Positions 16,222-47,720 of a DNA stretch of 53,723 nt are shown here, piece after piece. This DNA comes from Lentimonas sp. (GTDB lineage Bacteria > Pseudomonadota > Alphaproteobacteria > Rickettsiales > UBA1997). The stretch spans positions 1 to 53,723 of the forward strand of contig JBLHVR010000002.1 in the NCBI GenBank assembly GCA_047628655.1, given 5' to 3'. The position numbers and the translations under genes are program-made. Positions within the stretch are counted from its first letter, which is position 1. Every line of letters begins with the position of its first letter. The notes beneath the pieces are model-generated. The model saw only the letters and a program-made list of their open reading frames with translations, had not been told where the DNA came from and ran no database searches.

Positions 16222-18024
16222 TTAACCAACTTGACTTTGTGGCAAAGTTTTTTTCTGTCTTAGTGAAATTCCAAGCTCTTTTAACTGCTGCTCTGAAACT
16301 TCCGCTGGAGCGTCCATCATTAAATCTTGTGCTTTACCATTCATTGGAAAAGGAGTTACTTCGCGAATATTTTCTTCATCAGCCAAAAGCATGATAATTC
16401 GATCAATTCCAGGAGCAATTCCACCATGAGGAGGAGCGCCAAATTTGAAAGCTTCCAACATTGCGCCAAATTCTTTTTCCACTGTTTCTTTGCCATATCC
16501 TGCAATTTCAAAAGCTTTATACATAATTTCTGGTTTATGATTTCTAATTGCGCCAGATGAAAGTTCAACACCATTACAAACCACATCATATTGGAAAGCT
16601 TTAATTTCTAATGGATTTTTGGAATGTAAATCATCCATTCCACCTTGAGGCATTGAAAATGGATTATGTGAGAAATCAATTTTCCCAGTTTTTTCATCTT
16701 TTTCATACATTGGGAAGTCGGTAATCCAGCAGAATTTATAAACTCCTTCTTCAATTAAACCTAAATCTTGGCCTAATTTAATACGAACTTGTCCAGCAAT
16801 TCTAACGGCCTCGCTTTCCTGTCCACAAGAGAAGAAAACTGCATCGCCATTATTTAATCCTGCAGTTTCTTTAAGCTCTGCCAATTTTTCAGGACTTAAA
16901 AATTTAGCGATTGGGCCTTTTCCTAAACCATTTTCGTCAAAAATTATGTAAGCTAACCCTTTAGCGCCATTACTTTGAGCAAATTCAATTGTTTTATCAA
17001 AGAATGATCGTGGTTTGGAAGCACATTTTGGAGCTGGAATTGCTCTAATTAATGACCCTGATTCAATGGCGCGAGTGAAAATTGAAAAACCTGACCCCAC
17101 AAAAATGTCGTTAGCCGCAGAAATGATGATTGGATTTCTTAAATCTGGTTTATCAATTCCATATCTTAACATGGATTCGCGATATGGAATATGCGGGAAA
17201 TCACCAGCTGTAACTTTTTTAACTCCATATTTTTCAAAAATATCACGCAGAAGAGGCTCTACAATAGCAAAAACATCTGCTTGAGTGGCAAAGGACATTT
17301 CCAAATCGAGCTGATAAAATTCAGGAGCGCGATCAGATCTTAAATCTTCGTCACGAAAACAAGGGGCAATTTGAAAATATTTATCAAAACCCGCAACCAT
17401 TAAAAGCTGTTTAAATTGTTGTGGAGCTTGTGGAAGCGCATAAAATTTACCATGATGTAAGCGAGATGGCACTAGATAATCTCTTGCTCCTTCTGGGCTG
17501 GAAGCGGTTAAAATTGGAGTTTGAATTTCAAGAAAATTAAGCGCCGTCATTTGCGATCTGATGAAACTAATAACTTGTGACCTTAAAATTATATTATTGT
17601 GAGTTTTTTCACGACGTAGATCTAAAAAGCGATATTTTAAGCGTAAATCTTCAGGATAATGTTCATTTTTATCATTAATTTGGAAAGGTATTTGCTTGGC
17701 GGCAGATTCAATAAATAATTGATCAATTTTAATTTCAATTTCTCCAGTTCCAATATTTGGATTAATTGCTTCATCAGCTCTTTTTACAACATTTCCAATA
17801 ATTGTAATTACAGATTCTAATTTAATTGAAGAAATTTCATCAATGTTCAAACCTGTGTTTGCACTGTCAATAACACATTGCGTAAGACCGAAATGATCTC
17901 TTAAATCAATAAAAATTAAACTTCCATGATCTCTTTTTGAGTGAACCCAGCCAGATAATTTAACTTGTTGATTAATTTGGGAAATAGTTAATTGGCCACA
18001 ATTATGGGTGCGATATTTATGCAT
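16222..18024 (-). CDS. aspS: aspartate--tRNA ligase (bacterial type)
   Basis: OB-fold N-terminus, motif 2 [10 protein letters not shown], motif 3 [13 protein letters not shown]. Length 600 aa. Confidence 0.97.
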
Positions 18025-18095: not shown

Positions 18096-18392
18096 CTAAT
18101 AAACATCGTAAGAATTAGTTCCGCCATGATATAACTTATTGCGGCAAATACTACATTTAGAATTTTTAACTAGAAACAGCTCCATTGCTCGTGGCTCTTT
18201 TAAACATAAAAGCCAAAATACTCCGTGAACCGCAGGCAGGATAACAAGAAGATAGATGAATTTGCTGGTAATAATAAATGCAAGTAGTGAAATCAATAAA
18301 TTCAAAGTTGCTAAAGTATAACTTACGCCCATCAACATTGGTGGTCTAGTTAAACCTAGAAATAGAGGGTCGGCTCCGATTGATCCTGACAT
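18096..18392 (-). CDS. virB3: type IV secretion system protein VirB3/TrbD family
   Basis: 98 aa. [32 protein letters not shown] matches the VirB3 signature (L-x-x-x-T-R-P-x-M-x-x-G-V), followed by two TM helices. Confidence 0.8.
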
Positions 18393-18535
18393 GCTAAAGT
18401 GATTATTTATTGGTTAATAATTAATTATGCTGTGTCTATTTAAGAATTCAATTAGACAAAAGCTTTTTAATTGTTTTTTTAAAAGAAATTATTATTATGC
18501 CGCGCTCTTTTGATTAACGAAATATACCAAATATT

Positions 18536-19741
18536 ATGTCTTTTTTAGCAAAAAATTTAGCCAATATTAAACCATCTCCAACCATTGCGGTTAGCATGAA
18601 AGCAGCAGAATTGAAAGCTGCCGGTAAAAACATTATAAGCCTTGGAATGGGTGAGCCAGATTTTGACACTCCAGACAATGTTAAAGAAGCTGGAATTGCC
18701 GCTATTAGAAATGGCCAAACTAAATATACTGCTGTTGACGGAACTCCAGATCTTAAAAAAGCAATCATCTCAAAACTAAAAAGAGATAATGGTTTAGAAT
18801 ATGCTGCAAATGAAATAATGGTTTCCACTGGCGCTAAACAAGTAATTTACAATGCCCTAATGGCAACTTTAAATGAAGGTGACGAAGTTATTATTCCTGC
18901 GCCTTATTGGGTTTCTTATCCAGATATGGTTCTTTTAGGTTGCGGTGTTCCTGTGGCAATTGAAGCTAGCGCTGCTAATGACTTTAAAATTACTCCGGAA
19001 GATTTACAAAGATCAATTACCCCAAAAACTAAATGGATTATTCTAAATTCTCCAAGCAACCCGACTGGAAGTTGTTATGATGCGGAAGATTTGCGTGGCT
19101 TGGCCGATGTTTTATTGAAAAACCCACAAGTTCACATTCTATCTGATGACATTTACGAACATTTAATTTTTGAAGGATCCAAATTCTCAAACATAGTTGA
19201 AGTTGAGCCAAAATTGAAAAAAAGAACCTTGGTAGTAAATGGCGTTTCTAAAGCCTATTCAATGACTGGTTGGAGAATTGGTTATTGTGCAGGTGACGTT
19301 TCATTAATTAAAGCGATGTCTAAAATTCAATCTCAAAGCACCTCTTCTCCATCTTCAGTGGGTCAGGCTGCTGCGGTTGAGGCTTTAAATGGCGATCAAT
19401 CTTACATCGAATATTCTGTTAAAGTTTTTCAATCAAGACGTGACATGGTGGTAAAAATGTTAAATGAAATTGACGGAATTTCTTGCAACATTCCAAGTGG
19501 CGCTTTCTATGTTTTCCCTTCTTGTGAAGGTGTATTTGGCAAAAAAACTCCAGATGGAAAAATTATTGAAAATTCAACTGATTTTTCAACTTACATTCTA
19601 GAACACGCTCTTGTTGCAACGGTTCCAGGAATTGCTTTTGGCAGTGAAGGTTTTTTCAGAGCTTCTTACGCAGCATCAGAAGATTTCTTGAAGGATGCGA
19701 TGAATAGAATTTCCGATGCTTGTAAAAAGTTATCTTCATAA
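18536..19741 (+). CDS. aspartate/aromatic aminotransferase (class I PLP enzyme)
   Basis: IISLGMGEPDFDTP, NPTG, PLP-lysine context SKAYSMTGWRIGY. Length 401 aa. Confidence 0.9.
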   Translation: MSFLAKNLANIKPSPTIAVSMKAAELKAAGKNIISLGMGEPDFDTPDNVKEAGIAAIRNGQTKYTAVDGTPDLKKAIISKLKRDNGLEYAANEIMVSTGAKQVIYNALMATLNEGDEVIIPAPYWVSYPDMVLLGCGVPVAIEASAANDFKITPEDLQRSITPKTKWIILNSPSNPTGSCYDAEDLRGLADVLLKNPQVHILSDDIYEHLIFEGSKFSNIVEVEPKLKKRTLVVNGVSKAYSMTGWRIGYCAGDVSLIKAMSKIQSQSTSSPSSVGQAAAVEALNGDQSYIEYSVKVFQSRRDMVVKMLNEIDGISCNIPSGAFYVFPSCEGVFGKKTPDGKIIENSTDFSTYILEHALVATVPGIAFGSEGFFRASYAASEDFLKDAMNRISDACKKLSS

Positions 19742-19777
19742 GTGTGAATTCCAAACAACAAATTAATCCATTAACTC

Positions 19778-20533
19778 ATGCTTCTCGCAATCGATATTGG
19801 TAACACAAATATTGTCTTTGGCATTTTCCAAGAAGATAAATTATTGCATAAATTTCGCCTTGAAACTGTGTTTCAAAAATCAGAGGAAGATTATGCGGTA
19901 GAAATTGTTGAAGCGTTTTTAAATCAAAAGATTGATTGCTTGAAGATTCTTAAAGTTGTGATTTCTTCTGTTGTTCCAAATTTAACATCTATAATTGAAA
20001 AAGCGGTTCATAAATTTTACAGCAGCGATGTTTTTACCGTTGGCTCAAACTTAAAATTAAAAATCAACAACACCCTACAGAACAAACAGGAAGTTGGTTT
20101 TGATCGCCTTTTAAATTCCATAGCTGGTTATAAAAAATTTGGTGGAAATTTAATAATTGTTGATTTTGGCACTGCTACAACCTTCGATATTGTCGGAAAA
20201 GATGGTGAATATCTTGGCGGCATAATTGCTCCCGGAGTTGATCTATCCATTAAAGCTTTACATGAAGCAACGGCTCAACTTCCTAAAATTCAATTAAAAT
20301 CACAAAATAATGTCATTGGAAAATCTACCAGTGAGGCGATGAATTCAGGAATTTATTTTGGATATATCAGCCTAATTGAAGGCCTGGTTGAAAAAATTAA
20401 GGTTGAACTTGGTTGCGATGTTAAACTAATTCTTACTGGCGGACTTTCTAACTTATTTAAAGATTTAGCCAAAAATAAAGATCATATTCAGCCAGATTTA
20501 ACCCTGGAAGGCCTAAGATTAGCAGTTTTATAG
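19778..20533 (+). CDS. coaX: type III pantothenate kinase
   Basis: MLLAIDIGNTNIVFG, VDFGTATTFD, LTGGLS motifs. Length 251 aa. Confidence 0.92.
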   Translation: MLLAIDIGNTNIVFGIFQEDKLLHKFRLETVFQKSEEDYAVEIVEAFLNQKIDCLKILKVVISSVVPNLTSIIEKAVHKFYSSDVFTVGSNLKLKINNTLQNKQEVGFDRLLNSIAGYKKFGGNLIIVDFGTATTFDIVGKDGEYLGGIIAPGVDLSIKALHEATAQLPKIQLKSQNNVIGKSTSEAMNSGIYFGYISLIEGLVEKIKVELGCDVKLILTGGLSNLFKDLAKNKDHIQPDLTLEGLRLAVL

Positions 20534-20574
20534 CGGCATTTATCCCGCAAAATTCTCAAAAATAATTATATTAA

Positions 20575-21918
20575 ATGTTCGATAACATAACCAATAGCCT
20601 CACGAGAGCTTTCGACAGTCTTTCTGGTAAGAAATTCATTTCAGAAGACCACCTAAATGATGCAATGCGCGAGATTAGAATTGCGCTTCTAGAAGCTGAT
20701 GTTTCCTTGCCAATTGCCAAGGAATTTATCGCAAAAGTTAAAATTGAGGCCGCAGGTCAACAAGTAATTAAGTCGGTTTCTCCGGCGCAAATGATTACCA
20801 AAATCGTCCATGATGAAATGGTTAAATTGCTTGGAAGCGAGAAATCGGAAATTAATCTTAGCATAAAACCTCCTGTAACTTTATTAATGGTTGGTTTGCA
20901 AGGTGCTGGAAAAACCACTAGTGCAGCAAAATTGGCTCACCATCTTTACAATAAATTTGGTAAAAAACGCATTTTACTAGCTTCAATTGACACCAACCGA
21001 CCAGCAGCTCAAGAGCAATTAGAAGTTTTGGCGCAGAAAGCAGGAGTTGATTCTTTAGAAATTATTAAAGGTCAAAGCCCAGAAAAAATTACCAAAAGAG
21101 CAGTAAAACAAGCAACAGAGCTTAATTACGATGTTCTAATTTTAGATAGTGCGGGAAGAATTCACATTGACGATGAATTAATGAAAGAACTCTCGCAGGT
21201 TAAGAAACTTTCTAATCCCACTGAAACACTTTTGGTTGTTGATGCATTAATTGGTCAAGATGCCATTAATGTTGCTAATAATTTCCAAGAAAAACTGGGA
21301 ATTAATGGAATAATTCTCACCAGAATTGATGGAGATTCTCGCGGTGGAGCAGCAATTACCATGAAAATGGCGACAGGTTGCCCGATAAAATTTTTAGGAT
21401 CTGGTGAAAAAATTGATGAATTAGAAGTTTTTGATCCAACAAGAATTGCTGGCAGAATTTTGGGAATGGGAGATGTGGTTTCCTTGGTTGAAAAAGCAGC
21501 CGAAAGCCTTGATCAAGCAGAACTTGAAAAGACTGAGAAAAAATTCCGCAAAGGAAAATTTGATTTGAATGATTTACTTTCTCAAATTAAAAATATGAAA
21601 AAAATGGGTGGCTTAGGATCAATTCTTAAATTCCTACCCGGAGCTGGAAAAATTAAAGAACAACTTTCTGACCCGAAAGTGGAAAAAGAAGTTAAAAAAC
21701 AAGAAGCATTAATTAATTCCATGACTCTTTTAGAGCGTTCAAAACCAGAAACTCTTAATTCTTCACGCAAAAGAAGGATTGCCGCCGGATCTGGCGGAAC
21801 TATGCAGGAAGTGAATAGTTTACTTAAAAAACTAAAAATGATGCAAAAAATGATGGGAAAAGTTGGGAAAATGGATGAAGATTCAATGAAGCAAATGATG
21901 AATAAACTAGATAGATAA
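20575..21918 (+). CDS. ffh: signal recognition particle protein Ffh
   Basis: NG domain with GLQGAGKTT, DTNRPAA, DSAGR, TRIDGDSRGG. Met-rich M domain at the C-terminus. Confidence 0.96.
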   Translation: MFDNITNSLTRAFDSLSGKKFISEDHLNDAMREIRIALLEADVSLPIAKEFIAKVKIEAAGQQVIKSVSPAQMITKIVHDEMVKLLGSEKSEINLSIKPPVTLLMVGLQGAGKTTSAAKLAHHLYNKFGKKRILLASIDTNRPAAQEQLEVLAQKAGVDSLEIIKGQSPEKITKRAVKQATELNYDVLILDSAGRIHIDDELMKELSQVKKLSNPTETLLVVDALIGQDAINVANNFQEKLGINGIILTRIDGDSRGGAAITMKMATGCPIKFLGSGEKIDELEVFDPTRIAGRILGMGDVVSLVEKAAESLDQAELEKTEKKFRKGKFDLNDLLSQIKNMKKMGGLGSILKFLPGAGKIKEQLSDPKVEKEVKKQEALINSMTLLERSKPETLNSSRKRRIAAGSGGTMQEVNSLLKKLKMMQKMMGKVGKMDEDSMKQMMNKLDR

Positions 21919-21942
21919 ATAGCAATTATAAATAATTAAGAA

Positions 21943-31707: not shown

Positions 31708-34700
31708 TTAATCATTAGGTTTTGTAACATCACTTACAAACTTATCAACATTGGATTTTCTGGCTCTTTCTAATGATTTTGAGGCGTAGCTTCCTTTGTT
31801 TATTGCTGATCCCATTGTTCTCCTTGTGTTATTTAGGGTGTTATTTGCTAAATTATATGGGGTTGAATGGCCTTCATTTCTATGATCTTTAGTTACTGAT
31901 TTTGCAGCACTCCATGCTTTACCTGGAGCTGATCTTGCGGAAGTAAATGCATTCCCAGGGGATGAAATAGCTCTATTTGCTCCGTATTGAATTCCTCTGG
32001 CTACGCGCATTGGATCAGTTACGGCACTTCCAACGCTTTTTGAGCCTCTATAAGCAGCTCCTGGTGCTTTACTTAGGCTATGTGCCATTCTGTCTTTTAA
32101 GCCAACACTAACATTTAGATCTTTATTTTTTATAGCACTACCGATATTTGATCTATCTTCATTACTAGCTCCTTTCATAGATTCTTTTAATTGGCTTCCA
32201 GTAATTTTGGAGTTGGCCTTGTCTGGTGACATGTATGAATCATATTTACTTTTAATTTTATTACTTCCCAACTCACTCAAAGTCGCGCTTGCTAATCTAC
32301 TCCTTTCAGTCATGATTTGTTTTGCACCATCGGCAGATAGGCCAAGAGAAAGTCCTTTTCCTAGTTTTGCATTATCTTTTACACCCTGCAGTATTTTTTT
32401 CTGATCTGCGCCAGTTTTAGCTCCTGATAATTGTTTAATTCCTGCTGTCGAATTTTTAAATTTATCTACCGCTTTATCACCAGCTTTATTCATTTCTTTT
32501 CTTTGTGAATCTTCTTTCGCATATTGTTCTTTTGCTTCTTTTTTGCTTTTTTCAGCTTTTTTACCAGAATTGAATAATGCTCTATCAACAGATTGTGTCA
32601 CTCCACTTAATTTACCTCCAATAGCTCCTTTAGCATTTTTAAGTGTTCCTTCTGCTGCCGATTTAATTCCTCCGGATAGCTGACTAGCCCTAATTGAGCC
32701 ACCAATAGCCGCTGCAAGATCGGTTATAAAACCAACAAAACTGTGCATTATTGAGGCAATAATCCATATAAATAAAATTGAAAATAAGGATGGAATTCCT
32801 TCTGGATTCCCAATATTACCCATTTCCCCTTGAGATCCCATAGATGAGGGTAGGGAAGGTAATGTCCAGAAAGATAATAGGCTTATTCTGCTTATTCCCA
32901 TATCAATTACCCACACTTCATCCCAACAGACTCTATATCCAAGTGACATTTTTATTACCTCATACATCATCATATTGAAGAATGCCAAGGTTGTTAATAG
33001 GAAGACTTGCTGCAATGAAAAACCGATTAATTCAGAAAGCCATTTATCGAAGGTTTCTTTGGTTTGATTAAATAGGAGCATGATAAAGAATATTGGCCCC
33101 AATATGAATAAAATTGAAATAAAGACTTGCGCAGTTAGATAAAGTAAGACGGCGTTAGCAACCGCATATATGTAGAGTAAAATACTCATGCCAACTATGT
33201 AGAGATATACCGGACCAAAAAGACTTGCGAAGAGCAAGGCTTGGATTTTTATTAGAGTTGGATCAGAGAATATTAGACCTAGAACCTTATCAACACTGCT
33301 GAATAATATGGCTTTGTCACTATAATCACCACTGGCAATGGCTGAGCTTAATTCAGGCGATTGATCAAATGAGCTAGCCATTAAGAATGTTAGATAATTG
33401 GAACCCTCTTTGAAGAAGTTGACAAATAATGCGTCAAACCACTCCCATCCACCTGGACTGATAAATAGATATACTATGCCAATTTTAATGATTCTGGTAA
33501 TGATTTCTCCTTGAGAGAACTCACTTACGCCCATTAAATATCCGACTCCATAAAAGGTAATCATTAAAATGACGGATATTTGGATGATTGCTTGAAATCT
33601 TGCATCACTGGTAACTTGCTTATATATTCTTTCGGCTTGCCCGATTTTACCTGCTTCTGTTGCACTATTTGGGTCTCCGTCCATTATTTCAATTACTGGA
33701 GAAACAACTTGGTCAACAATGCCAGAGAATTTATAATTATCATTTTCAACCTGAACAATAACTTGGTAACTTCCACTATTATTGTGATATGTATTGGCAC
33801 AATAATATTGTTTTTTGCAATCACTTGATCCCGAACCTATTGACGTCGTACATATTTGACCACTATTGCCCACAATAGCACTTTCGAAAAAGTCGTTATC
33901 TGTTATAACTCCATCACATGCAGTTCCAGAGCAAGAATTTACTAGGTTTGGAGCATTTATTGCGCAATTTCCTATTTCTGGATCTTTGATTTTGAAACTA
34001 ATTCTTAATTTATCTCCACTAGAACAATAGAACTCTCCATTACAACTAGTAACGTCTGCACAAATAAGTCCTTGGTTCAATTTTGATGTAGAGGAATCAT
34101 CGATATAATTTGAACTACGAGCTATAAAACCGCAATTTGAACCTATGCCTCCACAATCAGTATTAGCACTTAAAGTTATATTTGAAGTTGCATCAAGATT
34201 ACAAGATCCCCACTGACTACTACTGCCATGGTTATGGCGATAGAATTTATCTCCATCAAATGTTTCAAATTCAAGGGCAGAATTTGGATTGATGCCTGCG
34301 GATGAATTAGAATTGTTAAATCTTATTAGATCTCCACTTTCATCAAATTTATAATAGCTCTCTATTTCCGGATCTTGAGCTGTTGTGGTTGGGTTTTTAA
34401 TTTTAACTATGTTTGGCTGGTTACCAATTTGAATTGGTATAGTATCAGAAGAGCAATTTACACTAGTGTTGTCCTCTTCTAGGCATAATATTGCTTCTAA
34501 CCATTGACCGTTCTTAAATTCTTGCCTTCCAGATAAATCTACTTTGTAGCCATTTACTCCGTTATATGATGCGCTGTTGCTGGTGACAATATTATCAAAC
34601 GAATCGCCTTTTAAAATTAAGAATGATGCTCTGCCACTAATTTCAGGCATTATAGGATATCTTGATTGATAAATTATGTTGTTATTGTAGGCAGCTCCTT

Positions 34701-37023
34701 CTTTCGAGCCGGTTTTTGAAAAACTAGAAAAATTACCATATGAACCGTTAAATGTCTCCAGCCTTACAGCTCCTTTATATTTAGAATCATCCGCCAAATC
34801 AGAATCTGAAATTCCTGTGGCTGCAGAAATTTTACTAACTTTTCCTTCATAATTTTCTAAATTGTAACATTGGTCCACATCAACAGCAATTGTGGTTGAT
34901 GTTGGGGTATCTCTGTTTTGGGCGGATAAGCAAGAGCTACAAGTTACTGATGTGACGGATGGAGTAATTTGGTCGCATGTGTCAGCATCATAGGTAGATT
35001 GACAACTTTCAATTGGACAAAATGCACTGTCTAAATATGGAGAATCAAAAGCTGCATTATATCCACAATCTGCAGAATATTCTTTACAAAATTTTGTCCC
35101 ATTCGAATTAAATTGAATTATACAATTTGGATTATCAACATTTTCTGGAGCAACTCCTCGACACAGAAAAGCTGGCTTATCGAGAATTATTTGATTTGTA
35201 AAATCATAACCACCAACTTTCATAGCCATACCAACACCGCACCGCCTATTCAAGCCGCTGGTTGCTGTCCACTCGCCTTCCCAGCTTGATGGATCAAAAC
35301 GAAGAATTTGTCCTCTCCTAACATAAATTGTACTAGACCATGTTTTTTGTGGATTACTTGATACTGGTATTGATAAATTTCTTAAAGGATCAGATGTAGA
35401 TGTGGAAAAAGACTCATATTCGTAAAATTCATTATTAACGCCAGAGATTCTATCTCCCAAAGGATTAATGACTCTTCCCTTCAGAACACAGCTTTGACCA
35501 CCAAAACTAGCCGCAGAAGAACCTTGTCCAATAGAAGTAAAGCTGACAAATCCGGATTTATCGATTTTAATATCATGAATTTTGTCACGACGATAAGCTG
35601 TTACCGTTCCACAATTAGTTGTGCCGCCAGCATTGGTGTCATTGGAGGATATGGTAATTGAATCTCCCGATTCTAGAGAGATGTAATTACTGCTCCAACC
35701 AGAATTATTTGTTTCAATGTTGTGATTATTAAGAATATTATTGCCGCTATCCTTTACAGTTGCTACCAGTGGAGATGATGATGTTAAGTCACAAGCATTT
35801 GTGGATAACAGGCTTTTAAAGCTAATTTTAACGGCGTAAGTTTCATTGTTGGTAATTGAAATTGCCGCCGTTGAAATATCTCCAACTATCGCACCTAATG
35901 TAGGGCCGGGAAGTGAGCTACAAGTTGGGCTACAAACCGCACCACTACTTGCGAAGGGGTCACTTGAAAAAGGTGTTAAACCATCTAATTCCCACCTAAT
36001 CATCCCCCCAATACTACCTAAATTATTCATTTTAATTCTCGAATCAATCGCATAATAGGACTGAGCTATTGTGTTGTCGGTTGATGGGTAGCCACTGGCA
36101 GTATTGTAGGTTAGGCTGTTGCATGAAGATTGTGTCTTATCAACAGACCCTGAGTAACTACAAGCCCACAACCTGTCATCAGCAAAAAGGGGGGTTCCTG
36201 TGGTTCCTAATTGTTCGAATGAAGCATCTTTATCAAAGCTGTAACCTAATGGATGAGGAGTTATGAATGCGGCGAGTCTTTTAGCGCCGTTAACAACATC
36301 AGATCTTTGGGAAACAATATCCACATCTCCACCATATTTTATGGCGCTGTTGGTGGGGTCTGTCCAAGACCCACTGAATTGGACTTGTTTTGATATGCCC
36401 TGCGTTAAATCAAGAAATTTATTATCAAAACCAAGCTCTCTAGAATGTTGAGTGTTGTCGGTGCTAAATGCGAATATATTATTTAATATTCCTCCACCAA
36501 GAACAATATTTCCAAAGGCTTTAATACGAATTTTAGACTCGGGACTTATGGTTATTCCAGAATTTCTGCCGGGAATTCGTCTTGTAGTTGAAGTCCAATA
36601 TGGTTCAGAACCTCCCGATGTTGCACTAGAATTATTAGCACAAACTATTCTACATTCTTCAATACAAATTCTTTGAGCAGTACTATTCTCATCAAAACCG
36701 TCACAACCCTTACTATCCTCATTGGAGTAAACCGTACCGCTTGTATCTGTAACGCTAACAGTTCCCATGGTAAAGCAAGATGTTAGTCCGGAACCTTGAG
36801 AATAGTCGCTAACTGGTTTTCCAGAAATATATTCGCAACTCTGGCTCTGAGCGTTAGCTTGGATAGTTAATACTTCTTGCTCATATTCTCCAAAATTTTC
36901 AGCCTCAATACATCCCTCATTACTACAAGAAGAATAGGAGAATAGGAGGAGCAATAGCAATAACGACCTGCCTAAAGTGGTTTTTAGATATTTAGATTGA
37001 ATTAAAGAAAATAATTTTCGCAA
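31708..37023 (-). CDS. giant (1771 aa) VirB6/TrbL-like type IV secretion inner-membrane protein with a large Cys-rich exported N-terminal domain and a basic low-complexity C-terminal tail
   Basis: TTG start and signal peptide (LLLLLLLFSYSSC). Residues ~1141-1445 are polytopic and include LGPIFFIMLLFNQTKETFDKWLSELIGFSLQQVFLL, matching the conserved TrbL/VirB6 core. Residues ~34-1140 are hydrophilic S/T/N/G/C-rich. Residues ~1446-1771 are K/S/A/G-rich. The ORF itself is certain; the family call rests on motif recognition. Confidence 0.75.
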   Translation of the reverse strand: MRKLFSLIQSKYLKTTLGRSLLLLLLLFSYSSCSNEGCIEAENFGEYEQEVLTIQANAQSQSCEYISGKPVSDYSQGSGLTSCFTMGTVSVTDTSGTVYSNEDSKGCDGFDENSTAQRICIEECRIVCANNSSATSGGSEPYWTSTTRRIPGRNSGITISPESKIRIKAFGNIVLGGGILNNIFAFSTDNTQHSRELGFDNKFLDLTQGISKQVQFSGSWTDPTNSAIKYGGDVDIVSQRSDVVNGAKRLAAFITPHPLGYSFDKDASFEQLGTTGTPLFADDRLWACSYSGSVDKTQSSCNSLTYNTASGYPSTDNTIAQSYYAIDSRIKMNNLGSIGGMIRWELDGLTPFSSDPFASSGAVCSPTCSSLPGPTLGAIVGDISTAAISITNNETYAVKISFKSLLSTNACDLTSSSPLVATVKDSGNNILNNHNIETNNSGWSSNYISLESGDSITISSNDTNAGGTTNCGTVTAYRRDKIHDIKIDKSGFVSFTSIGQGSSAASFGGQSCVLKGRVINPLGDRISGVNNEFYEYESFSTSTSDPLRNLSIPVSSNPQKTWSSTIYVRRGQILRFDPSSWEGEWTATSGLNRRCGVGMAMKVGGYDFTNQIILDKPAFLCRGVAPENVDNPNCIIQFNSNGTKFCKEYSADCGYNAAFDSPYLDSAFCPIESCQSTYDADTCDQITPSVTSVTCSSCLSAQNRDTPTSTTIAVDVDQCYNLENYEGKVSKISAATGISDSDLADDSKYKGAVRLETFNGSYGNFSSFSKTGSKEGAAYNNNIIYQSRYPIMPEISGRASFLILKGDSFDNIVTSNSASYNGVNGYKVDLSGRQEFKNGQWLEAILCLEEDNTSVNCSSDTIPIQIGNQPNIVKIKNPTTTAQDPEIESYYKFDESGDLIRFNNSNSSAGINPNSALEFETFDGDKFYRHNHGSSSQWGSCNLDATSNITLSANTDCGGIGSNCGFIARSSNYIDDSSTSKLNQGLICADVTSCNGEFYCSSGDKLRISFKIKDPEIGNCAINAPNLVNSCSGTACDGVITDNDFFESAIVGNSGQICTTSIGSGSSDCKKQYYCANTYHNNSGSYQVIVQVENDNYKFSGIVDQVVSPVIEIMDGDPNSATEAGKIGQAERIYKQVTSDARFQAIIQISVILMITFYGVGYLMGVSEFSQGEIITRIIKIGIVYLFISPGGWEWFDALFVNFFKEGSNYLTFLMASSFDQSPELSSAIASGDYSDKAILFSSVDKVLGLIFSDPTLIKIQALLFASLFGPVYLYIVGMSILLYIYAVANAVLLYLTAQVFISILFILGPIFFIMLLFNQTKETFDKWLSELIGFSLQQVFLLTTLAFFNMMMYEVIKMSLGYRVCWDEVWVIDMGISRISLLSFWTLPSLPSSMGSQGEMGNIGNPEGIPSLFSILFIWIIASIMHSFVGFITDLAAAIGGSIRASQLSGGIKSAAEGTLKNAKGAIGGKLSGVTQSVDRALFNSGKKAEKSKKEAKEQYAKEDSQRKEMNKAGDKAVDKFKNSTAGIKQLSGAKTGADQKKILQGVKDNAKLGKGLSLGLSADGAKQIMTERSRLASATLSELGSNKIKSKYDSYMSPDKANSKITGSQLKESMKGASNEDRSNIGSAIKNKDLNVSVGLKDRMAHSLSKAPGAAYRGSKSVGSAVTDPMRVARGIQYGANRAISSPGNAFTSARSAPGKAWSAAKSVTKDHRNEGHSTPYNLANNTLNNTRRTMGSAINKGSYASKSLERARKSNVDKFVSDVTKPND

Positions 37024-37031
37024 AAATCGCC

Positions 37032-38036
37032 TTAAATTTGTTTTATAATTACATCAGCTAATCTTTGAGATTCAGCTAACTTCTTCGAGTTAGCAAAGAC
37101 TAGCGTTTTTCCATCTAATTTTCCATCTAATTTTCCATCTAATTTTTTTGCAAATCCCTTCTCAAACAAATTATTTAAGAATTTTCGATGTTTTAAAGAA
37201 CAAATTTCTGGTGAATCAAAGATATAAATTGACTTTCCAAGAGAACAAATCTCGCAGCACATTGTAATGGAATCACCAGTGGCAATAATTAAATCAGACG
37301 AATAAAGAGCTGCAAAATAAGGGTTGATTTCCTGACATTCTTGCCATTTGAAAAAAGTCTTAGAAAAATTTCCAATTAAATTCTGATCTAAAATTTCACT
37401 AATTTCATTACCGGTTCTTCTACTATCAAAAATAAATAAATGACCATTTAAATTAGAGGATATTTTACTAACCATTTTTCCTAAGTTTTTAGCGGTTTGA
37501 GTAGTAAATTTCCTTGTTTTAGAAGATCCGCCAACCAATAAAGAAATTCTAGGCTTTAGGTTAGTTTCTAAGATATCGGAGAATTTTTCATATTCCTCCT
37601 TAAGCAAATCTTCTTTAATTCGGGTTAATGATCCTAAAATTCTGATGACATTTTTTGCATCATTCTTTCTGTCATGATCTGGTAAGGCCACTAAATTGAA
37701 CTTTTTAAAATTCAAATTTGGGTGCATTATTTGAATTGTAAAAGCTTGGTAATATTTTTTTAGGAAAGCACAAAGGGGAGCGGTTTTTCTGCCGGCAGAA
37801 ATGATGATGTCAGGTTTAGATTTTTGATTGAACAGTTCAAACTTGGAAGATGATTTAATTCCCAATAATCCATTAATTTTTAGAAAATTGGGTATTTTTG
37901 CCCAAAAATTGTAATTAATTTCTTTGATTTTAATTTTACTTTCTGGCAATTTCCTCCAAATAGCCTCTGCAAGACCAAGAGCTTGAGAATAATTTCCAGC
38001 ACGATCATCTTTTAAAACCCAGATTATTTTACTCAT
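37032..38036 (-). CDS. ELM1/DUF1022-family protein (mitochondrial fission ELM1 homolog, putative glycosyltransferase-like)
   Basis: The N-terminus IWVLKDDRAGNYSQALGLAEAI is characteristic of the family. 334 aa. It overlaps coaD by 4 nt and ends 8 nt before the giant gene. Confidence 0.8.
   Translation of the reverse strand: MSKIIWVLKDDRAGNYSQALGLAEAIWRKLPESKIKIKEINYNFWAKIPNFLKINGLLGIKSSSKFELFNQKSKPDIIISAGRKTAPLCAFLKKYYQAFTIQIMHPNLNFKKFNLVALPDHDRKNDAKNVIRILGSLTRIKEDLLKEEYEKFSDILETNLKPRISLLVGGSSKTRKFTTQTAKNLGKMVSKISSNLNGHLFIFDSRRTGNEISEILDQNLIGNFSKTFFKWQECQEINPYFAALYSSDLIIATGDSITMCCEICSLGKSIYIFDSPEICSLKHRKFLNNLFEKGFAKKLDGKLDGKLDGKTLVFANSKKLAESQRLADVIIKQI
37111..37146. repeat. perfect 3 x 12-nt tandem repeat (ccatctaatttt) inside the ELM1-family gene, encoding (KLDG)3
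   Basis: Units at 37111-37122, 37123-37134 and 37135-37146 are identical. The protein reads KKLDGKLDGKLDGKTL. Confidence 0.95.
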
Positions 38037-38533
38037 TTTTGTAAAATTTTATTCAACTCTTGCTCAACATTCTTTGAAACAAATCCTGAAACATCTCCAC
38101 CTAATCTGGCAACTTCTTTAACCAATTTTGAAGCAATAAAATGGTTAGATTCTGATGCTGGAAGAAAAATAGTTTGAATTTCAGAATTAAGCTTAGAATT
38201 CATTCCAGACATTTGAAATTCATATTCAAAATCAGAAACAGCTCTAAGGCCACGAATAATGATGTTAGATTGTTTTTCCTTAGCAAAATTAATCAACAAA
38301 CCTTCAAAACCAACAACTTCCACGGTTTTATTTGGGTCGAGATTCTTTATGTCTTCTTCAATTAATTTAATTCTTTGCTGAACTGAAAAAATTGGGCTTT
38401 TGGAAGTGTCCTTAGCAACTCCAATAACTAGGTGATCGACAATTTTTAAAGTTCGCTTAATAATGTCTAAATGGCCAAAAGTAATGGGGTCAAAAGTTCC
38501 AGGATAAATGGCTTTTGTAATTGAATGATTCAT
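38033..38533 (-). CDS. coaD: phosphopantetheine adenylyltransferase
   Basis: AIYPGTFDPITFGHLDII (T/HxGH motif). Length 166 aa. Confidence 0.95.
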   Translation of the reverse strand: MNHSITKAIYPGTFDPITFGHLDIIKRTLKIVDHLVIGVAKDTSKSPIFSVQQRIKLIEEDIKNLDPNKTVEVVGFEGLLINFAKEKQSNIIIRGLRAVSDFEYEFQMSGMNSKLNSEIQTIFLPASESNHFIASKLVKEVARLGGDVSGFVSKNVEQELNKILQK

Positions 38534-41254: not shown

Positions 41255-43261
41255 TTAAAGTAGATTTTTAAGTAAGTTTGTTGCCACTGCAATTCCGTCT
41301 TGTTTAGAACCGCCACACATGGCTAAATCTGGTTTTCCACCACCGCCTTTGCCGCCAATTTTTTCGGAAATTTGGGGGATTATTTTTCCAGCATGAAACT
41401 TGGAAGTTAAATTTTGGCTAATTGCCAAAACTGCGGAAACTTTTTCATTTTCAGAACCAAAAAAGAGAATGATCGAGTTTTCTTGGTAATCTTTTTGATT
41501 CTTAGTTTCGGTGGCTAAATCGCGAACTTCTTTGGCGTTGGCGCCTTCAAAGAAATGATTAATGAAATTAATTTCACCAATTTTTTGAACAGAAAAATTA
41601 CTGGAATTAGCTAATTTCTCTTTTTTCAGTTTATCAACTTCCTTTTGAAGCACTTTAATTTCACCAATTTTACCCTCGCCAAGCTGATAAATTTTATTTA
41701 CTGCATTTTTCATTGAGGCAATTTCTCCGGCGCTCACAACTTCATTTTCAATGTTTTCATCGCTAAAAAAACTTAATTGGTCAAAGCCTTTTTTGGCGTT
41801 GTGAAATTCGTTTGCAGGCATTTGAACTTCTTCAAATTGCTGTTTAACTTTTAATGATTCAATTAAAGACTGTAATTTTCTTTCCTGAAGCCTTGAATAT
41901 TCCAGCGCAAAAAAACCGGTTTTAGCTTCAATTCTTCTAATTCCAGCCGCAATTCCTTTTTCTGAAATAATTTTAAAAGCACCAATATTTCCAGTAGATT
42001 TGGCATGAGTTCCGCCACAAAGCTCAATGGATTCTCCAATTTGTAAAACTCGCACTACATCGTCATATTTTTCACCAAAAAGCGCCATGGCGCCTTTTTC
42101 TCTGGCCTGCTCAATTGGTAAAATTTCGGTAGTAATTGGGCTGTTTTGACGAATAAGAAAATTGACTAAATCTTCAATTTGGTCCACTTCTACTTGAGTT
42201 AAAGCCTTATTGTGATTGAAGTCGAAAGTGAAGGCAGAATCATCAACATTTGAACCTTTTTGGCTAATGTGAGAACCGAGAACTTGCTTTAAAACAAAAT
42301 GCAAAAGGTGAGTTGCCGAGTGGTTTTGAGACCTAAATTGACGACTGCGATTGTTTACTAGTGCAATTATTTCATCGCCAACTTTAAACTTTCCACGAAT
42401 TTCTAAGGCGTGATGAATGAATAAATCTTCCGCTGCTTTTTTGGCTTCAAAAACATCGATGACATTTTCAAGATTAGAGTAATTTATTAATGCATTTTCC
42501 TTAAATTCAGACTTTAAAATTAAATTACCATCATCACCTTTTTGACCACCAGAAGTTGCGTAAAAAGGAGTTTGATCAAGAATTATTTCAATATTCTTGT
42601 CACTTTCTTTAGCTTCCATAACCTCTTCACCATTTTGCAAAATACTTAAAATTGTGGCAGATGATTTGGTAGATTTGTAACCCAAAAACTGAGTTTTTGG
42701 TAATTTATTTTTCAACTCGAAATAAATGTTGTTGTCTGCGACTTCACCGCTTCCTGTCCAATTTTCTGAACTGCGTTTTTTCTGTTTCTCCATCGCCAAA
42801 TTAAAACCTTCAATATCAACATCAATTTGTTTTTCTTTGAGAATATCTTGCGTTAAATCGAGTGGAAAACCGTAAGTGTCGTAAAGTTTAAAGGCAATTT
42901 CTCCGGAAAATTTGTTAGTTTTTAAGTCAATCTTTCCAATTTCTTCACTTAAAATTTTCATTCCATCGCCAAGAGTTTTTTGAAATCTTTCTTCTTCGGT
43001 TTTTAAAGTGTCAATAATTGTGGCCTGCGCGCGAACTAACTCTGGAAAAGCTTCACCCATTTCAGCAATTAAAGCTGGAACTAGCTGGTGCATTACTGGA
43101 TTTTTAGAGCCTAATTTGTGAATGTGGCGCATGGCGCGGCGCATTATTCGGCGTAAAACATAACCGCGACCCTCATTGGAAGGCATAACACCATCAGCGA
43201 TGATGAATGATGAAGACCGAAGATGATCGGTTATTACTTTGTAAGATGGATTGATTTTCAT
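41255..43261 (-). CDS. alaS: alanine--tRNA ligase lacking the N-terminal ~230-240 residues (no motif 1/2 catalytic core); retains the rest of the aminoacylation domain, the tRNA-recognition and editing domains, and C-Ala/DHHA1
   Basis: It starts MKINPSYKVITDHLRSSSFIIADGVMPSNEGRGYVLRRIMRRAMRH, which aligns to about residue 235 of canonical AlaRS. Editing-domain motifs HSATHLLH and CGGTH are present, and the C-terminus has GGGGKPDLA. An in-frame TAA lies at 43288-43286. Confidence 0.85.
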   Translation of the reverse strand: MKINPSYKVITDHLRSSSFIIADGVMPSNEGRGYVLRRIMRRAMRHIHKLGSKNPVMHQLVPALIAEMGEAFPELVRAQATIIDTLKTEEERFQKTLGDGMKILSEEIGKIDLKTNKFSGEIAFKLYDTYGFPLDLTQDILKEKQIDVDIEGFNLAMEKQKKRSSENWTGSGEVADNNIYFELKNKLPKTQFLGYKSTKSSATILSILQNGEEVMEAKESDKNIEIILDQTPFYATSGGQKGDDGNLILKSEFKENALINYSNLENVIDVFEAKKAAEDLFIHHALEIRGKFKVGDEIIALVNNRSRQFRSQNHSATHLLHFVLKQVLGSHISQKGSNVDDSAFTFDFNHNKALTQVEVDQIEDLVNFLIRQNSPITTEILPIEQAREKGAMALFGEKYDDVVRVLQIGESIELCGGTHAKSTGNIGAFKIISEKGIAAGIRRIEAKTGFFALEYSRLQERKLQSLIESLKVKQQFEEVQMPANEFHNAKKGFDQLSFFSDENIENEVVSAGEIASMKNAVNKIYQLGEGKIGEIKVLQKEVDKLKKEKLANSSNFSVQKIGEINFINHFFEGANAKEVRDLATETKNQKDYQENSIILFFGSENEKVSAVLAISQNLTSKFHAGKIIPQISEKIGGKGGGGKPDLAMCGGSKQDGIAVATNLLKNLL

Positions 43262-46190: not shown

Positions 46191-47720
46191 ATGACCAAGA
46201 AAATAGTTCTGTCTTTTATAACCATTACAATTATTTCTTTTGCTGCTTTTGGTGCTTTTTGGTTGGTTAAAACCAACACAATAAAAAAGCATCTTGCCGC
46301 TTTTCAGGCGCCTGGATTTTTTCTTACATCCTCTTCAGTGTCGGTTAGCGGTTTTCCTTTGAAACAAAATTTCTCTGTTAAAAACCTCATCATTAAACCA
46401 AGCGCTCCAGAATATTTAGATGACAATCTAGATATTGACAAAGATAAGAAAAGTGCATTGAACAATAATTCTTTAAACATTCCGTCTTTGAATTTATCCG
46501 CTGGAATTTTCTCCAATAATTTCTCTCTTACCATTAAAGATGATTTAAAAATTGGTGAAGAGAATGAAATGTACGATGTTAAATTTAATCAAATTCCCCT
46601 TGCTAATATTATTATTGAAGGCACAGAAGTAACAAGATTTTCTTACCAAGGCCAAGGTTACAAAATTTCAGATGCGGAAAATAATGTGGTTTTTGAAAAT
46701 GGCAGCTCCAAGATTGATTTTTCATTAATTGTTGTAGAAAATCAGAAAATTGCCAAATTGTTGGCCGATTTTAAAGAAATGGGAGATTTATTCTCATTAG
46801 AACAATTGGATTCTGAGATGAAGCGTCAATCTGATCTTTTAGAAATTGTTAATTCAATTGATAAAAATGCAGAAACGAATTCCCCAGAAGATAAAAATGA
46901 AATGGAACAAATATTATTAGATATTACAGAAGCTCGTACTGACAAAACTTTAAACTATCAAGATCTTACTATTAGAAATATTCATTTAGATTTGGAATTA
47001 TTCTTAGAAAATAATTCCAATAAAAATTCTAATTTACCAGATTTGGGAAATGGCAGCACTGATAATCTTACTCCTTTTGAGCACAACGCCATTAAATCAG
47101 TTAAAATTAATAATGTGGAATTATCTAACCCTATTTACAAATTTAATATTAATGGAAATCTAAGTAATTTAGACAGTAAGGATTCTGAGCCATCTTTTAA
47201 TTTGTCACTTAAAGTTGAAGAATATGAAACCGTTCTAACCTATTTGCAGCAAGCTGTGAATAATTTTGAGAATTTGATGCATTACATTTCCAAAAAAGAA
47301 TCTGAAGATAAAAATTTGGAAGAAATAATTGCTGTTGCTCCTGCAGAATTGCCGGAAGTTTCTGAGCAATTAATAGAAGAATCTACTTCGCAAATTGAAG
47401 ATCAAAATATTACTCCTGAAGAAGACGGCATTGGATTTGATGTTGTTAAAACGATTCGCGAAGTTGCTCAGAAAAATATTGCTACGGGTGAAAGAATTGC
47501 CATTTTTGATTTTGGACAAGATGCAAACGGAAGCGTAATTATTAATAACATTCCGTTCTTAGAAATAATGTTGCGTTCAATTACAGCAGCTGCTGATGAA
47601 GCTGGAGTTAATGAATCTTCCGATCCTACTTTAGATGATTTTGCTATTGATCCTGTATTAATTGAAAATTCAGCTCCAATTCCACAGCTCACCCCTATTA
47701 AAATCTCTCCAACCAATTAG
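46191..47720 (+). CDS. membrane-anchored hypothetical protein (possibly DUF2125 family)
   Basis: 509 aa with one N-terminal TM segment, then VSVSGFPLKQNFSVKNL, reminiscent of alphaproteobacterial DUF2125 proteins. The central region is acidic/Asn-rich. The family call is tentative. Confidence 0.6.
   Translation: MTKKIVLSFITITIISFAAFGAFWLVKTNTIKKHLAAFQAPGFFLTSSSVSVSGFPLKQNFSVKNLIIKPSAPEYLDDNLDIDKDKKSALNNNSLNIPSLNLSAGIFSNNFSLTIKDDLKIGEENEMYDVKFNQIPLANIIIEGTEVTRFSYQGQGYKISDAENNVVFENGSSKIDFSLIVVENQKIAKLLADFKEMGDLFSLEQLDSEMKRQSDLLEIVNSIDKNAETNSPEDKNEMEQILLDITEARTDKTLNYQDLTIRNIHLDLELFLENNSNKNSNLPDLGNGSTDNLTPFEHNAIKSVKINNVELSNPIYKFNINGNLSNLDSKDSEPSFNLSLKVEEYETVLTYLQQAVNNFENLMHYISKKESEDKNLEEIIAVAPAELPEVSEQLIEESTSQIEDQNITPEEDGIGFDVVKTIREVAQKNIATGERIAIFDFGQDANGSVIINNIPFLEIMLRSITAAADEAGVNESSDPTLDDFAIDPVLIENSAPIPQLTPIKISPTN

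Follow-up and report, generated by a model that had tools for sequence, protein, structure and literature searches.

Three solitary secretion genes in the window

The window analyzed here, a 53.7-kb stretch of contig JBLHVR010000002.1 that is densely coding, contains 0 Ns, and has a G+C content of ~34%, carries three genes for components of a type IV secretion system (T4SS): virB3, a virB2/trbC-like pilin gene (virB2L), and a giant virB6-like gene (virB6L), each standing alone among housekeeping genes. Profile searches support all three family assignments (PF05101 and NF010474, PF04956, and PF04610, all above cut-off) at the positions proposed in a preliminary description of the sequence, which had named a failure of these assignments as grounds for abandoning it. 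The isolating neighbors listed there (aspS; proS and rpmB; sucA and coaD) are likewise confirmed by profiles, together with the aspartate aminotransferase gene aatA, elm1, and sucB. Scans of the open reading frames (ORFs) in the 53.7-kb window identified no VirB4, VirB8–11, or VirD4, in agreement with the reported lack of ATPase and core-complex genes. The three T4SS genes also show no compositional anomaly, as had been judged by eye, since their G+C content at third codon positions (GC3) matches that of their neighbors (z-scores against 45 window genes of 0.72 for virB3, −0.11 for virB2L, and 0.00 for virB6L).

The virB3 gene (18,096–18,392, minus strand) encodes 98 residues that score 87 bits against PF05101 (cut-off 23.9) and 128 bits against the NCBIfam equivalog NF010474 (cut-off 74). 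VirB3 family motifs have been described as (G/A/T)L(S/T)RP and GV (PMC2653234); the window protein carries GLTRP at residues 13–17 and GV at residues 22–23, with two hydrophobic segments within residues 19–66. The gene is divergent from aatA across a 143-nt gap and lies 71 nt upstream of its conserved partner aspS (16,222–18,024, minus strand; tRNA-synt_2, GAD, and OB domains), on the same strand. The corresponding gap is 39–94 nt in relatives; judged from this spacing, virB3 is probably co-transcribed with aspS. VirB3 is 65–89% identical among relatives, with nonsynonymous divergence (dN) of 0.10–0.24, saturated synonymous divergence (dS), and dN/dS of ~0.05–0.14 where calculable; the protein is under strong purifying selection.

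Two further observations concern this neighborhood. In a single metagenome-assembled genome (MAG; CAMDOL010000001.1, locus L002, 5442–7000), virB3 and aspS are separated by an insertion of two neighboring ORFs, one (307 aa) resembling C5 cytosine methyltransferases and the other (212 aa) a putative endonuclease gene, with the appearance of a type II restriction-modification pair. In another relative with the virB3–aspS pair (L257, 6680–8704), a large ankyrin-repeat protein, longer than 808 aa and cut by the contig end, is encoded 4 kb downstream and is a candidate T4SS effector.

The pilin gene virB2L (23,820–24,317, plus strand; 165 aa; PF04956, 38.8 bits, cut-off 27.9) lies between proS and rpmB. 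Its product has a Sec signal peptide (residues 1–22), a Cys-rich extension (residues 23 to ~88), and a pilin core (residues 89–165) with two hydrophobic helices (112–131 and 133–158); a signal peptide and two such helices in a mature core of ~70 residues are expected of VirB2/TrbC pilins. The last 70 residues align with the Agrobacterium tumefaciens T-pilin (PDB 8exh, E = 3.8e-5), and also with 8cue. Because it scores 30.6 bits against NF010431, the NCBIfam Agrobacterium-type equivalog (cut-off 103), we regard the protein as a member of the family and not as the Agrobacterium-type equivalog. Between close relatives (L014/L015) the pilin core is almost invariant, and the ~65-residue extension is hypervariable save for its cysteines.

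The giant VirB6-like protein

The third gene, virB6L (31,708–37,023, minus strand), encodes 1771 residues, of which residues 1152–1357 match PF04610 at 56.6 bits (cut-off 25.9) across profile positions 2–184 of 215. This match to a polytopic membrane domain, together with at least three strongly hydrophobic stretches, identifies the protein as a member of the VirB6/TrbL family. The N-terminus has no ATG; the start codon is a TTG, 8 nt past the stop of elm1 and with AAGG upstream. Because of this close spacing, coaD (38,033–38,533; PF01467), the Elm1-family gene (37,032–38,036; PF06258), and virB6L, which follow one another directly on the minus strand (coaD and elm1 at 37,032–38,533, overlapping by 4 nt), are suggested to form one operon. 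The start of sucA lies 100 nt downstream of virB6L, and sucA–sucB occupy 27,543–31,607 on the same strand. We recovered 21 full-length homologues of 1435–2197 aa, all of which (21/21) contain PF04610.

The protein has four parts. The first is a signal peptide, closing with a conserved FSYSSC motif that is possibly a lipobox. Behind it lies an exported, Cys-rich and beta-rich N-terminal domain (residues 34–1140; 33,604–36,924, minus strand), of which about 20 cysteines are invariant across the 21 homologues. Its AlphaFold2 model is moderately confident (predicted local distance difference test score, pLDDT, 69.6; predicted template modeling score, pTM, 0.58) and consists mostly of strands. A Foldseek search of the model against the PDB returned no match at E ≤ 1e-3; weak matches hinting at CBM-, CUB-, or jelly-roll-like kinship were not interpretable and were set aside. 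In an exhaustive phmmer search, the domain was found in ~105 of 1.84 billion cluster representatives, nearly all of them proteins of 1.5–3.4 thousand residues. The polytopic VirB6/TrbL membrane domain follows (residues ~1141–1445; 32,689–33,603, minus strand), defined by the Pfam match and by hydrophobic stretches at 1143–1167, 1260–1322, and 1407–1440. The remaining ~330 residues (1446–1771; 31,711–32,688, minus strand) are, by composition, a Lys/Ser-rich hydrophilic tail. VirB6 of A. tumefaciens has an N-out/C-in topology, and by analogy the tail is presumably cytoplasmic.

Comparison with the VirB6 encoded beside virB4 in related MAGs recovers similarity in the membrane domain only, at 21–26% identity, which indicates that the two proteins are old, divergent paralogs. 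In one of the relatives that retain virB6L (JAJTCH010000006.1, locus L011, 22,603–25,217), three tandem Peptidase_C58 (YopT-like cysteine protease) genes lie ~7 kb downstream of virB6L–sucAB and encode candidate secreted effectors.

Conservation of the layout among relatives

The arrangement around virB3, with aatA divergent on one side and aspS downstream on the other, was observed in six related MAGs (JAZKFV01, CAMDOL01, JBLHNE01, JBLHTM01, JBLHSZ01, and CAYWVI01). An identical VirB3 protein occurs at the same junction on five contigs from separate samples, and virB3 is also found beside aspS in distant relatives with 65–71% VirB3 identity (P0160 on at least 24 contigs, P0202 on 12, and P0257). 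Besides the six MAGs, more than 40 independent contigs show the virB3 junctions, and aspS is adjacent in the relatives examined, except for the insertion in CAMDOL01.

The other two junctions are conserved as well. Closer MAGs also retain the order coaX–ffh–…–proS–virB2L–rpmB, and proS–virB2L–rpmB is kept in L001/L014 and L015. The series coaD–elm1–virB6L–sucA–sucB is kept in L011 (JAJTCH01, titled "Rickettsiaceae bacterium") and in L096, at 40% identity, and coaD–elm1–virB6L in L012 and L013; a virB6L homologue with 34% identity likewise stands alone among housekeeping genes. The preliminary description had inferred an old, domesticated system; the native GC3, the deep conservation of synteny, and the low dN/dS of VirB3 bear this out. 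The scattered layout is thus ancient, conserved, and clade-wide, and a recent acquisition of the genes, which would conflict with their native GC3, is rejected.

Record titles mislead for this freshwater Rickettsiales group, in that many of its MAGs carry plainly incorrect organism names, including "Rickettsia typhi," "Rhizobium sp. Q54," "Ulvibacter sp.," and "Janthinobacterium lividum" (among them the records of L002, L026, L133, L185, L189, L021, and L251), and searches by name will therefore miss or mislabel the clade.

virB4 loci in the freshwater clade and in other Rickettsiales

As the window contains no virB4, the layout was also surveyed from the virB4 side, in two scans of one genome per bacterial species that yielded at least ~155 Rickettsiales virB4 loci, which were split by VirB4 identity to locus L144. 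Among the matches listed from the first scan, which used a broad alignment, none came from the window's clade; three loci without virB3 guided the second scan. A VirB4 identity of 62% or more to L144 defined the freshwater clade, whose 58 loci include one contig twice and which contains two MAGs titled "Rickettsiales bacterium UBA1997."

Within this clade, virB3 adjoins virB4 in none of the 55 informative loci; the gene upstream of virB4 usually encodes a major facilitator superfamily (MFS) transporter, and exactly one virB6 (~950–1080 aa) follows virB4 in 24 of the 25 loci with at least 8 kb of downstream sequence. Among the loci listed for the other Rickettsiales, classical as well as environmental, 92 of the 93 with enough upstream sequence have virB3 immediately before virB4, and two to four virB6 genes follow virB4 inside a 10-kb flank. 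This virB3-adjacent group includes Rickettsia, Tisiphia, Megaira, Orientia, Wolbachia, Ehrlichia, Neoehrlichia, Fokinia, Jidaibacter, and UBA6178. The detached layout is thus restricted to one clade, which now holds two divergent VirB6 paralogs, one of ~1000 aa beside virB4 and the solitary one of 1771 aa, in place of a tandem array.

Two MAGs with a solitary virB3 also hold a virB4–virB6 islet. One of them (L220, JBLHSZ01) belongs to the window's own genus-level group, with 79% identical Ffh, and the other (L200, CAYWVI01) is more distant, its virB3 likewise lying beside aspS. The two-gene islet is again set among housekeeping genes, which in L200 are ssb, nuoG, and one for an asparaginase and in L220 a trxB-like gene and pgk. 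VirB4 of these MAGs falls inside the Rickettsiales VirB4 in a neighbor-joining (NJ) tree without support values, in which CAYWVI01 nests within the clade and JBLHSZ01 branches basally.

A second virB4 (824 aa, ~30% identical) occurs in the family members L196 (CAIQBQ01) and L185 and was not located in the window's own clade. In both family members (L196, 481–6955) it directly follows sucA–sucB, ~6 kb from the first virB4 and its virB6, whereas in the window sucA–sucB is preceded by virB6L; T4SS genes thus flank sucAB in two ways within the family. Outside the main clade, a relative with 28% G+C (L174, CAMCQG010000022.1) has a virB4 with neither virB3 upstream nor virB6 downstream, its neighbors being a DUF1543 gene, ccmE, and unassigned ORFs; this is a further, independent break-up of the virB3–virB4–virB6 islet.

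Comparison with described systems

The Rickettsiales vir homolog (rvh) T4SS of Rickettsia has been described as an "archipelago of five islets" (Gillespie et al. 2009, PMC2653234): islet A with virB3–virB4a–virB6a–e, islet B with virB2 alone, islet C with virB9a–virB8a–virB7–virB8b–virB9b–virB10–virB11–virD4, islet D with virB1, and islet E with virB4b (PMC2653234). Several observations place the genes described here in the same system. Related MAGs are titled Rickettsiales, UBA1997, or Rickettsiaceae, their VirB4 groups with Rickettsiales VirB4, and the window VirB3 scores above the NF010474 cut-off; furthermore, three single-gene islets in the window and the virB4–virB6 islet of related MAGs lie among chromosomal housekeeping genes. 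As in Rickettsia, the system is chromosomal, vertically inherited, and scattered, and virB2 forms a single-gene islet. Duplication of VirB4 (RvhB4-I and RvhB4-II), a hallmark of rvh, is seen here in the family members L196 and L185. Rvh systems are further marked by duplicated VirB8 and VirB9, by VirB10, VirB11, and VirD4, and by the lack of VirB5.

Islet A differs. In Rickettsia virB3 heads it, whereas here virB3 stands alone between aatA and aspS, and a single virB6 remains with virB4. Classical rvh systems have three to five tandem VirB6 copies; extended, divergent VirB6 paralogs are a recognized feature of rvh (PMC8035066; PMC2653234), and R. typhi has five VirB6 proteins of 668–1154 aa (PMC2653234), as compared with the 1771-aa VirB6L, which stands alone after coaD–elm1 and whose N-terminal domain has no match outside its own family. 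The preliminary description had held that the scattering goes beyond the known islets, and this claim stands with one caveat: the detachment of virB3 is real and clade-wide, but a solitary virB2-like gene adds nothing to the known description, because single-gene islets (virB2, virB1, and virB4b) already occur in Rickettsia (PMC2653234). The texts of Schön 2022 and Verhoeve 2024 contain no passage on virB3 detachment. Compared with these rvh papers, what appears new is the solitary virB3, the single virB6 after virB4 with loss of the tandem array, and the solitary giant VirB6 paralog with a family-specific N-terminal domain.

The rvh systems of Anaplasmataceae (Wolbachia, Ehrlichia, and Neoehrlichia) are similar in occupying several loci and in having multiple divergent VirB6 and VirB2 paralogs, and in Wolbachia a pilus has been observed (bioRxiv 10.1101/2025.08.29.673095). 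However, in these genera virB3 lies directly upstream of virB4, followed by three to four virB6 genes (L159, L162, L164–L166, L169–L171, and L173). The archetypal VirB/VirD4 system of A. tumefaciens is encoded in a single plasmid operon with one VirB6 of ~295 aa, and it has VirB5. Homologues of its VirB2, VirB3, and VirB6 are present in the window, and the pilin core aligns with the T-pilin; in contrast, the genes are dispersed singly on the chromosome, VirB6L is six times longer, and the pilin carries a Cys-rich extension behind an ordinary Sec signal peptide.

Another uncultured Rickettsiales lineage offers a partial parallel to VirB6L. At JAGWLJ010000028.1 (L094, 3085–7975), two VirB6 paralogs carry Cadherin_4, Cadherin_5, and Big_9 domains N-terminal to TrbL, from which it follows that adhesin-like N-terminal extensions on VirB6 exist in Rickettsiales. 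Like VirB6L, these proteins fuse a large exported domain to the TrbL/VirB6 membrane domain; unlike it, their repeats are recognizable and their genes stand in a canonical virB3–virB4–virB6 array, whereas the VirB6L domain is novel and its gene solitary.

Interpretation and alternative explanations

We interpret the three genes as encoding inner-membrane and pilus components of a single rvh-type P-type T4SS that is chromosomal and vertically inherited, and whose ancestral virB3–virB4–virB6 block, with its multiple virB6 copies, has been broken up in an uncultured freshwater Rickettsiales lineage in or next to the GTDB family UBA1997; we assign this interpretation a probability of roughly 0.8. 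Under it, virB3 would have been relocated beside aspS, and virB4 would have retained a single ~1000-aa virB6 to form a two-gene islet elsewhere; the second, very divergent VirB6 paralog of 1771 aa would have come to lie at the end of the putative coaD–elm1 operon, upstream of sucAB, with the pilin gene solitary between proS and rpmB. The scattered products would then assemble in trans into one machine, in which VirB3 would join VirB4 within the inner-membrane complex, the VirB2-like protein would form the pilus or channel, and the VirB6 proteins would provide the stalk base as a pilin-loading platform. The disulfide-rich exported domain of VirB6L (1100 aa) and the Cys-rich extension of the pilin may build a periplasmic or surface structure; more speculatively, they could replace VirB5 and serve contact with a eukaryotic partner.

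Several points weigh against this interpretation. The virB4–virB6 islet is known from the related MAGs JBLHSZ01 and CAYWVI01 and not from the window's own contig, and the placement of the lineage in UBA1997 is taken from MAG titles and an NJ tree without bootstrap values. As regards completeness of the machine, virB8–11, virD4, virB1, and virB7 were not located for the lineage; virB8–11 and virD4 were found neither in the window nor in the annotated virB4 flanks, no dedicated genome scan having been made. No VirB5 was found in the window, its absence genome-wide not having been searched, and an adhesin role for the N-terminal domain of VirB6L is speculative because the domain has no recognizable fold relative. 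The proposed operons are read solely from gaps of 8–71 nt, and a scan for sigma-70 promoters and terminators near virB3 and virB2L gave fewer matches than shuffled sequence and is uninformative on operons. Finally, the restriction-modification pair inserted in CAMDOL01 shows that virB3 and aspS are separable.

A misassembly had been named in the preliminary description as a circumstance that would undo it, and the scattering could in principle be an assembly or binning artefact, the window being a chimeric contig and the three genes in reality forming part of an ordinary vir cluster. In favor of this, the contig is of metagenome type, and so are the related records, all MAGs, some of which are mis-titled (for example, "Rickettsia typhi" and "Rhizobium sp. 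Q54"). However, contigs assembled independently from many samples and projects share these junctions (those of virB3 in six MAGs and more than 40 contigs, those of virB6L in four relatives), the window is densely coding without Ns, and the virB4 loci of the clade, some on contigs of 0.2–1.2 Mb, never have virB3 upstream. This explanation is therefore rejected as wholly improbable. Decay of the system, with the three genes as relics that no longer build a secretion machine, would account for the lack of ATPase and core-complex genes in the window, for the failure to find virB8–11 and virD4 in the window or the virB4 flanks annotated, where no dedicated genome scan was made, and for the reduction of the virB6 array from three to five copies to one plus one. 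It is nevertheless very unlikely: all three ORFs are intact, VirB3 retains 65–89% identity across the family at saturated dS and with dN/dS of ~0.05–0.14, the pilin core hardly varies, 21 homologues conserve the VirB6 membrane domain and ~20 N-domain cysteines, and an intact virB4–virB6 pair is present in the same MAGs as the solitary virB3.

The interpretation of VirB6L as part of the T4SS has its own competitor, namely that the protein works largely apart from the secretion system, in the envelope or on the cell surface, for instance as an adhesin or a factor in cell shape, held by a VirB6-type membrane anchor and expressed together with coaD and elm1, while the virB4-adjacent VirB6 alone serves the channel. 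The solitary gene, tightly coupled to housekeeping genes by an 8-nt gap, is consistent with such a role, as are the confinement of similarity with other VirB6 proteins to the membrane domain (21–26% identity), the specificity of the N-terminal domain to the giant family, and fast evolution, VirB6L being 40–50% identical where SucA is 75% identical. However, we know of no independent function of the VirB6 domain, and this domain exceeds the Pfam cut-off in 21/21 homologues. Extended, divergent VirB6 paralogs are, moreover, recognized in rvh systems (PMC8035066; PMC2653234), and we consider a separate role for VirB6L unlikely.

A more elaborate version of the rvh interpretation takes the ecology of the family into account. 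Members of UBA1997 have been described as small rods attached to cryptophyte algae, extracellular and "transitional" between free-living and intracellular Rickettsiales, in a preprint that contains no secretion-system analysis (bioRxiv 10.1101/2023.01.31.526412). It is conceivable, if doubtful, that the rvh machine has been re-engineered in this epibiotic lineage: the VirB6 array would have collapsed and one paralog grown into the 1771-aa protein, the N-terminal domain of VirB6L and the pilin extension would have taken on a VirB5-like tip or adhesin role for attachment to, or effector delivery into, a cryptophyte host, and virB3 and virB6L, hard-wired into essential operons (aspS and coaD–elm1, respectively), would have become constitutively expressed parts.

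Other features of the window

The other ORFs scanned in the window (~46) are housekeeping genes or have no family match in Pfam profile searches. To the left of the T4SS stretch, those with a match are, in window order, an ompA-like gene, proB, clpP, clpX, typA, trmD, rimM, nusB, gltA, mnmA, an E2 acyltransferase gene, an Sdh5-family flavinator gene, exoD, thyX, and uvrC. Within the stretch (18,096–37,023) and at its aspS border they are aspS, aatA, coaX, ffh, a polyketide-cyclase-family gene, proS, rpmB, prfB, holA, sucB, and sucA; to the right they include the elm1-family gene, coaD, rlmH, the RNase J gene, alaS, pyrD, and a phosphate-binding PBP-like gene, among others. Scans for tRNA genes and Rfam families returned no matches in the window.

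Three of these ORFs merit comment. The alaS ORF (41,255–43,261, minus strand) encodes just 668 aa and starts at the equivalent of residue ~267–277 of Escherichia coli alanyl-tRNA synthetase (AlaRS); it lacks the class II catalytic core, for which the upstream sequence leaves no space, an aminotransferase gene lying 154 nt away. Relatives have equally short alaS genes (593–632 aa) adjoining RNase J, and the N-terminal half of AlaRS was not found in the window; these data may reflect a family-wide split or truncated AlaRS. The prfB ORF (24,837–25,781, minus strand) begins at position 28 of the PCRF profile, consistent with a candidate programmed +1 frameshift of the kind usual in the 5′ part of this gene. 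A 509-aa ORF (46,191–47,720, plus strand) between a ferredoxin gene and a phosphate-porin gene has its best match to DUF648 (E = 0.004, below cut-off) and belongs to no Pfam family.

Implications for the rvh system

The signature machine of host interaction in Rickettsiales is the rvh T4SS. The field has yet to explain the duplication and scattering of its genes and its operation in the absence of VirB5 (PMC8035066; bioRxiv 10.1101/2025.08.29.673095). The present results are descriptive comparative genomics and describe a new organizational variant of a known system, with no new mechanism. They provide evidence that retention of VirB3 does not require linkage or fusion of virB3 to virB4. The combination of virB3 beside aspS with no virB3 before virB4 is also a clean synapomorphy by which the clade can be spotted in metagenomes. 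The lineage represents a natural variant of rvh, its virB3 separate from virB4 and its VirB6 paralogs numbering only two, of which one is giant, and it offers a simpler system in which to ask what the VirB6 paralogs do.

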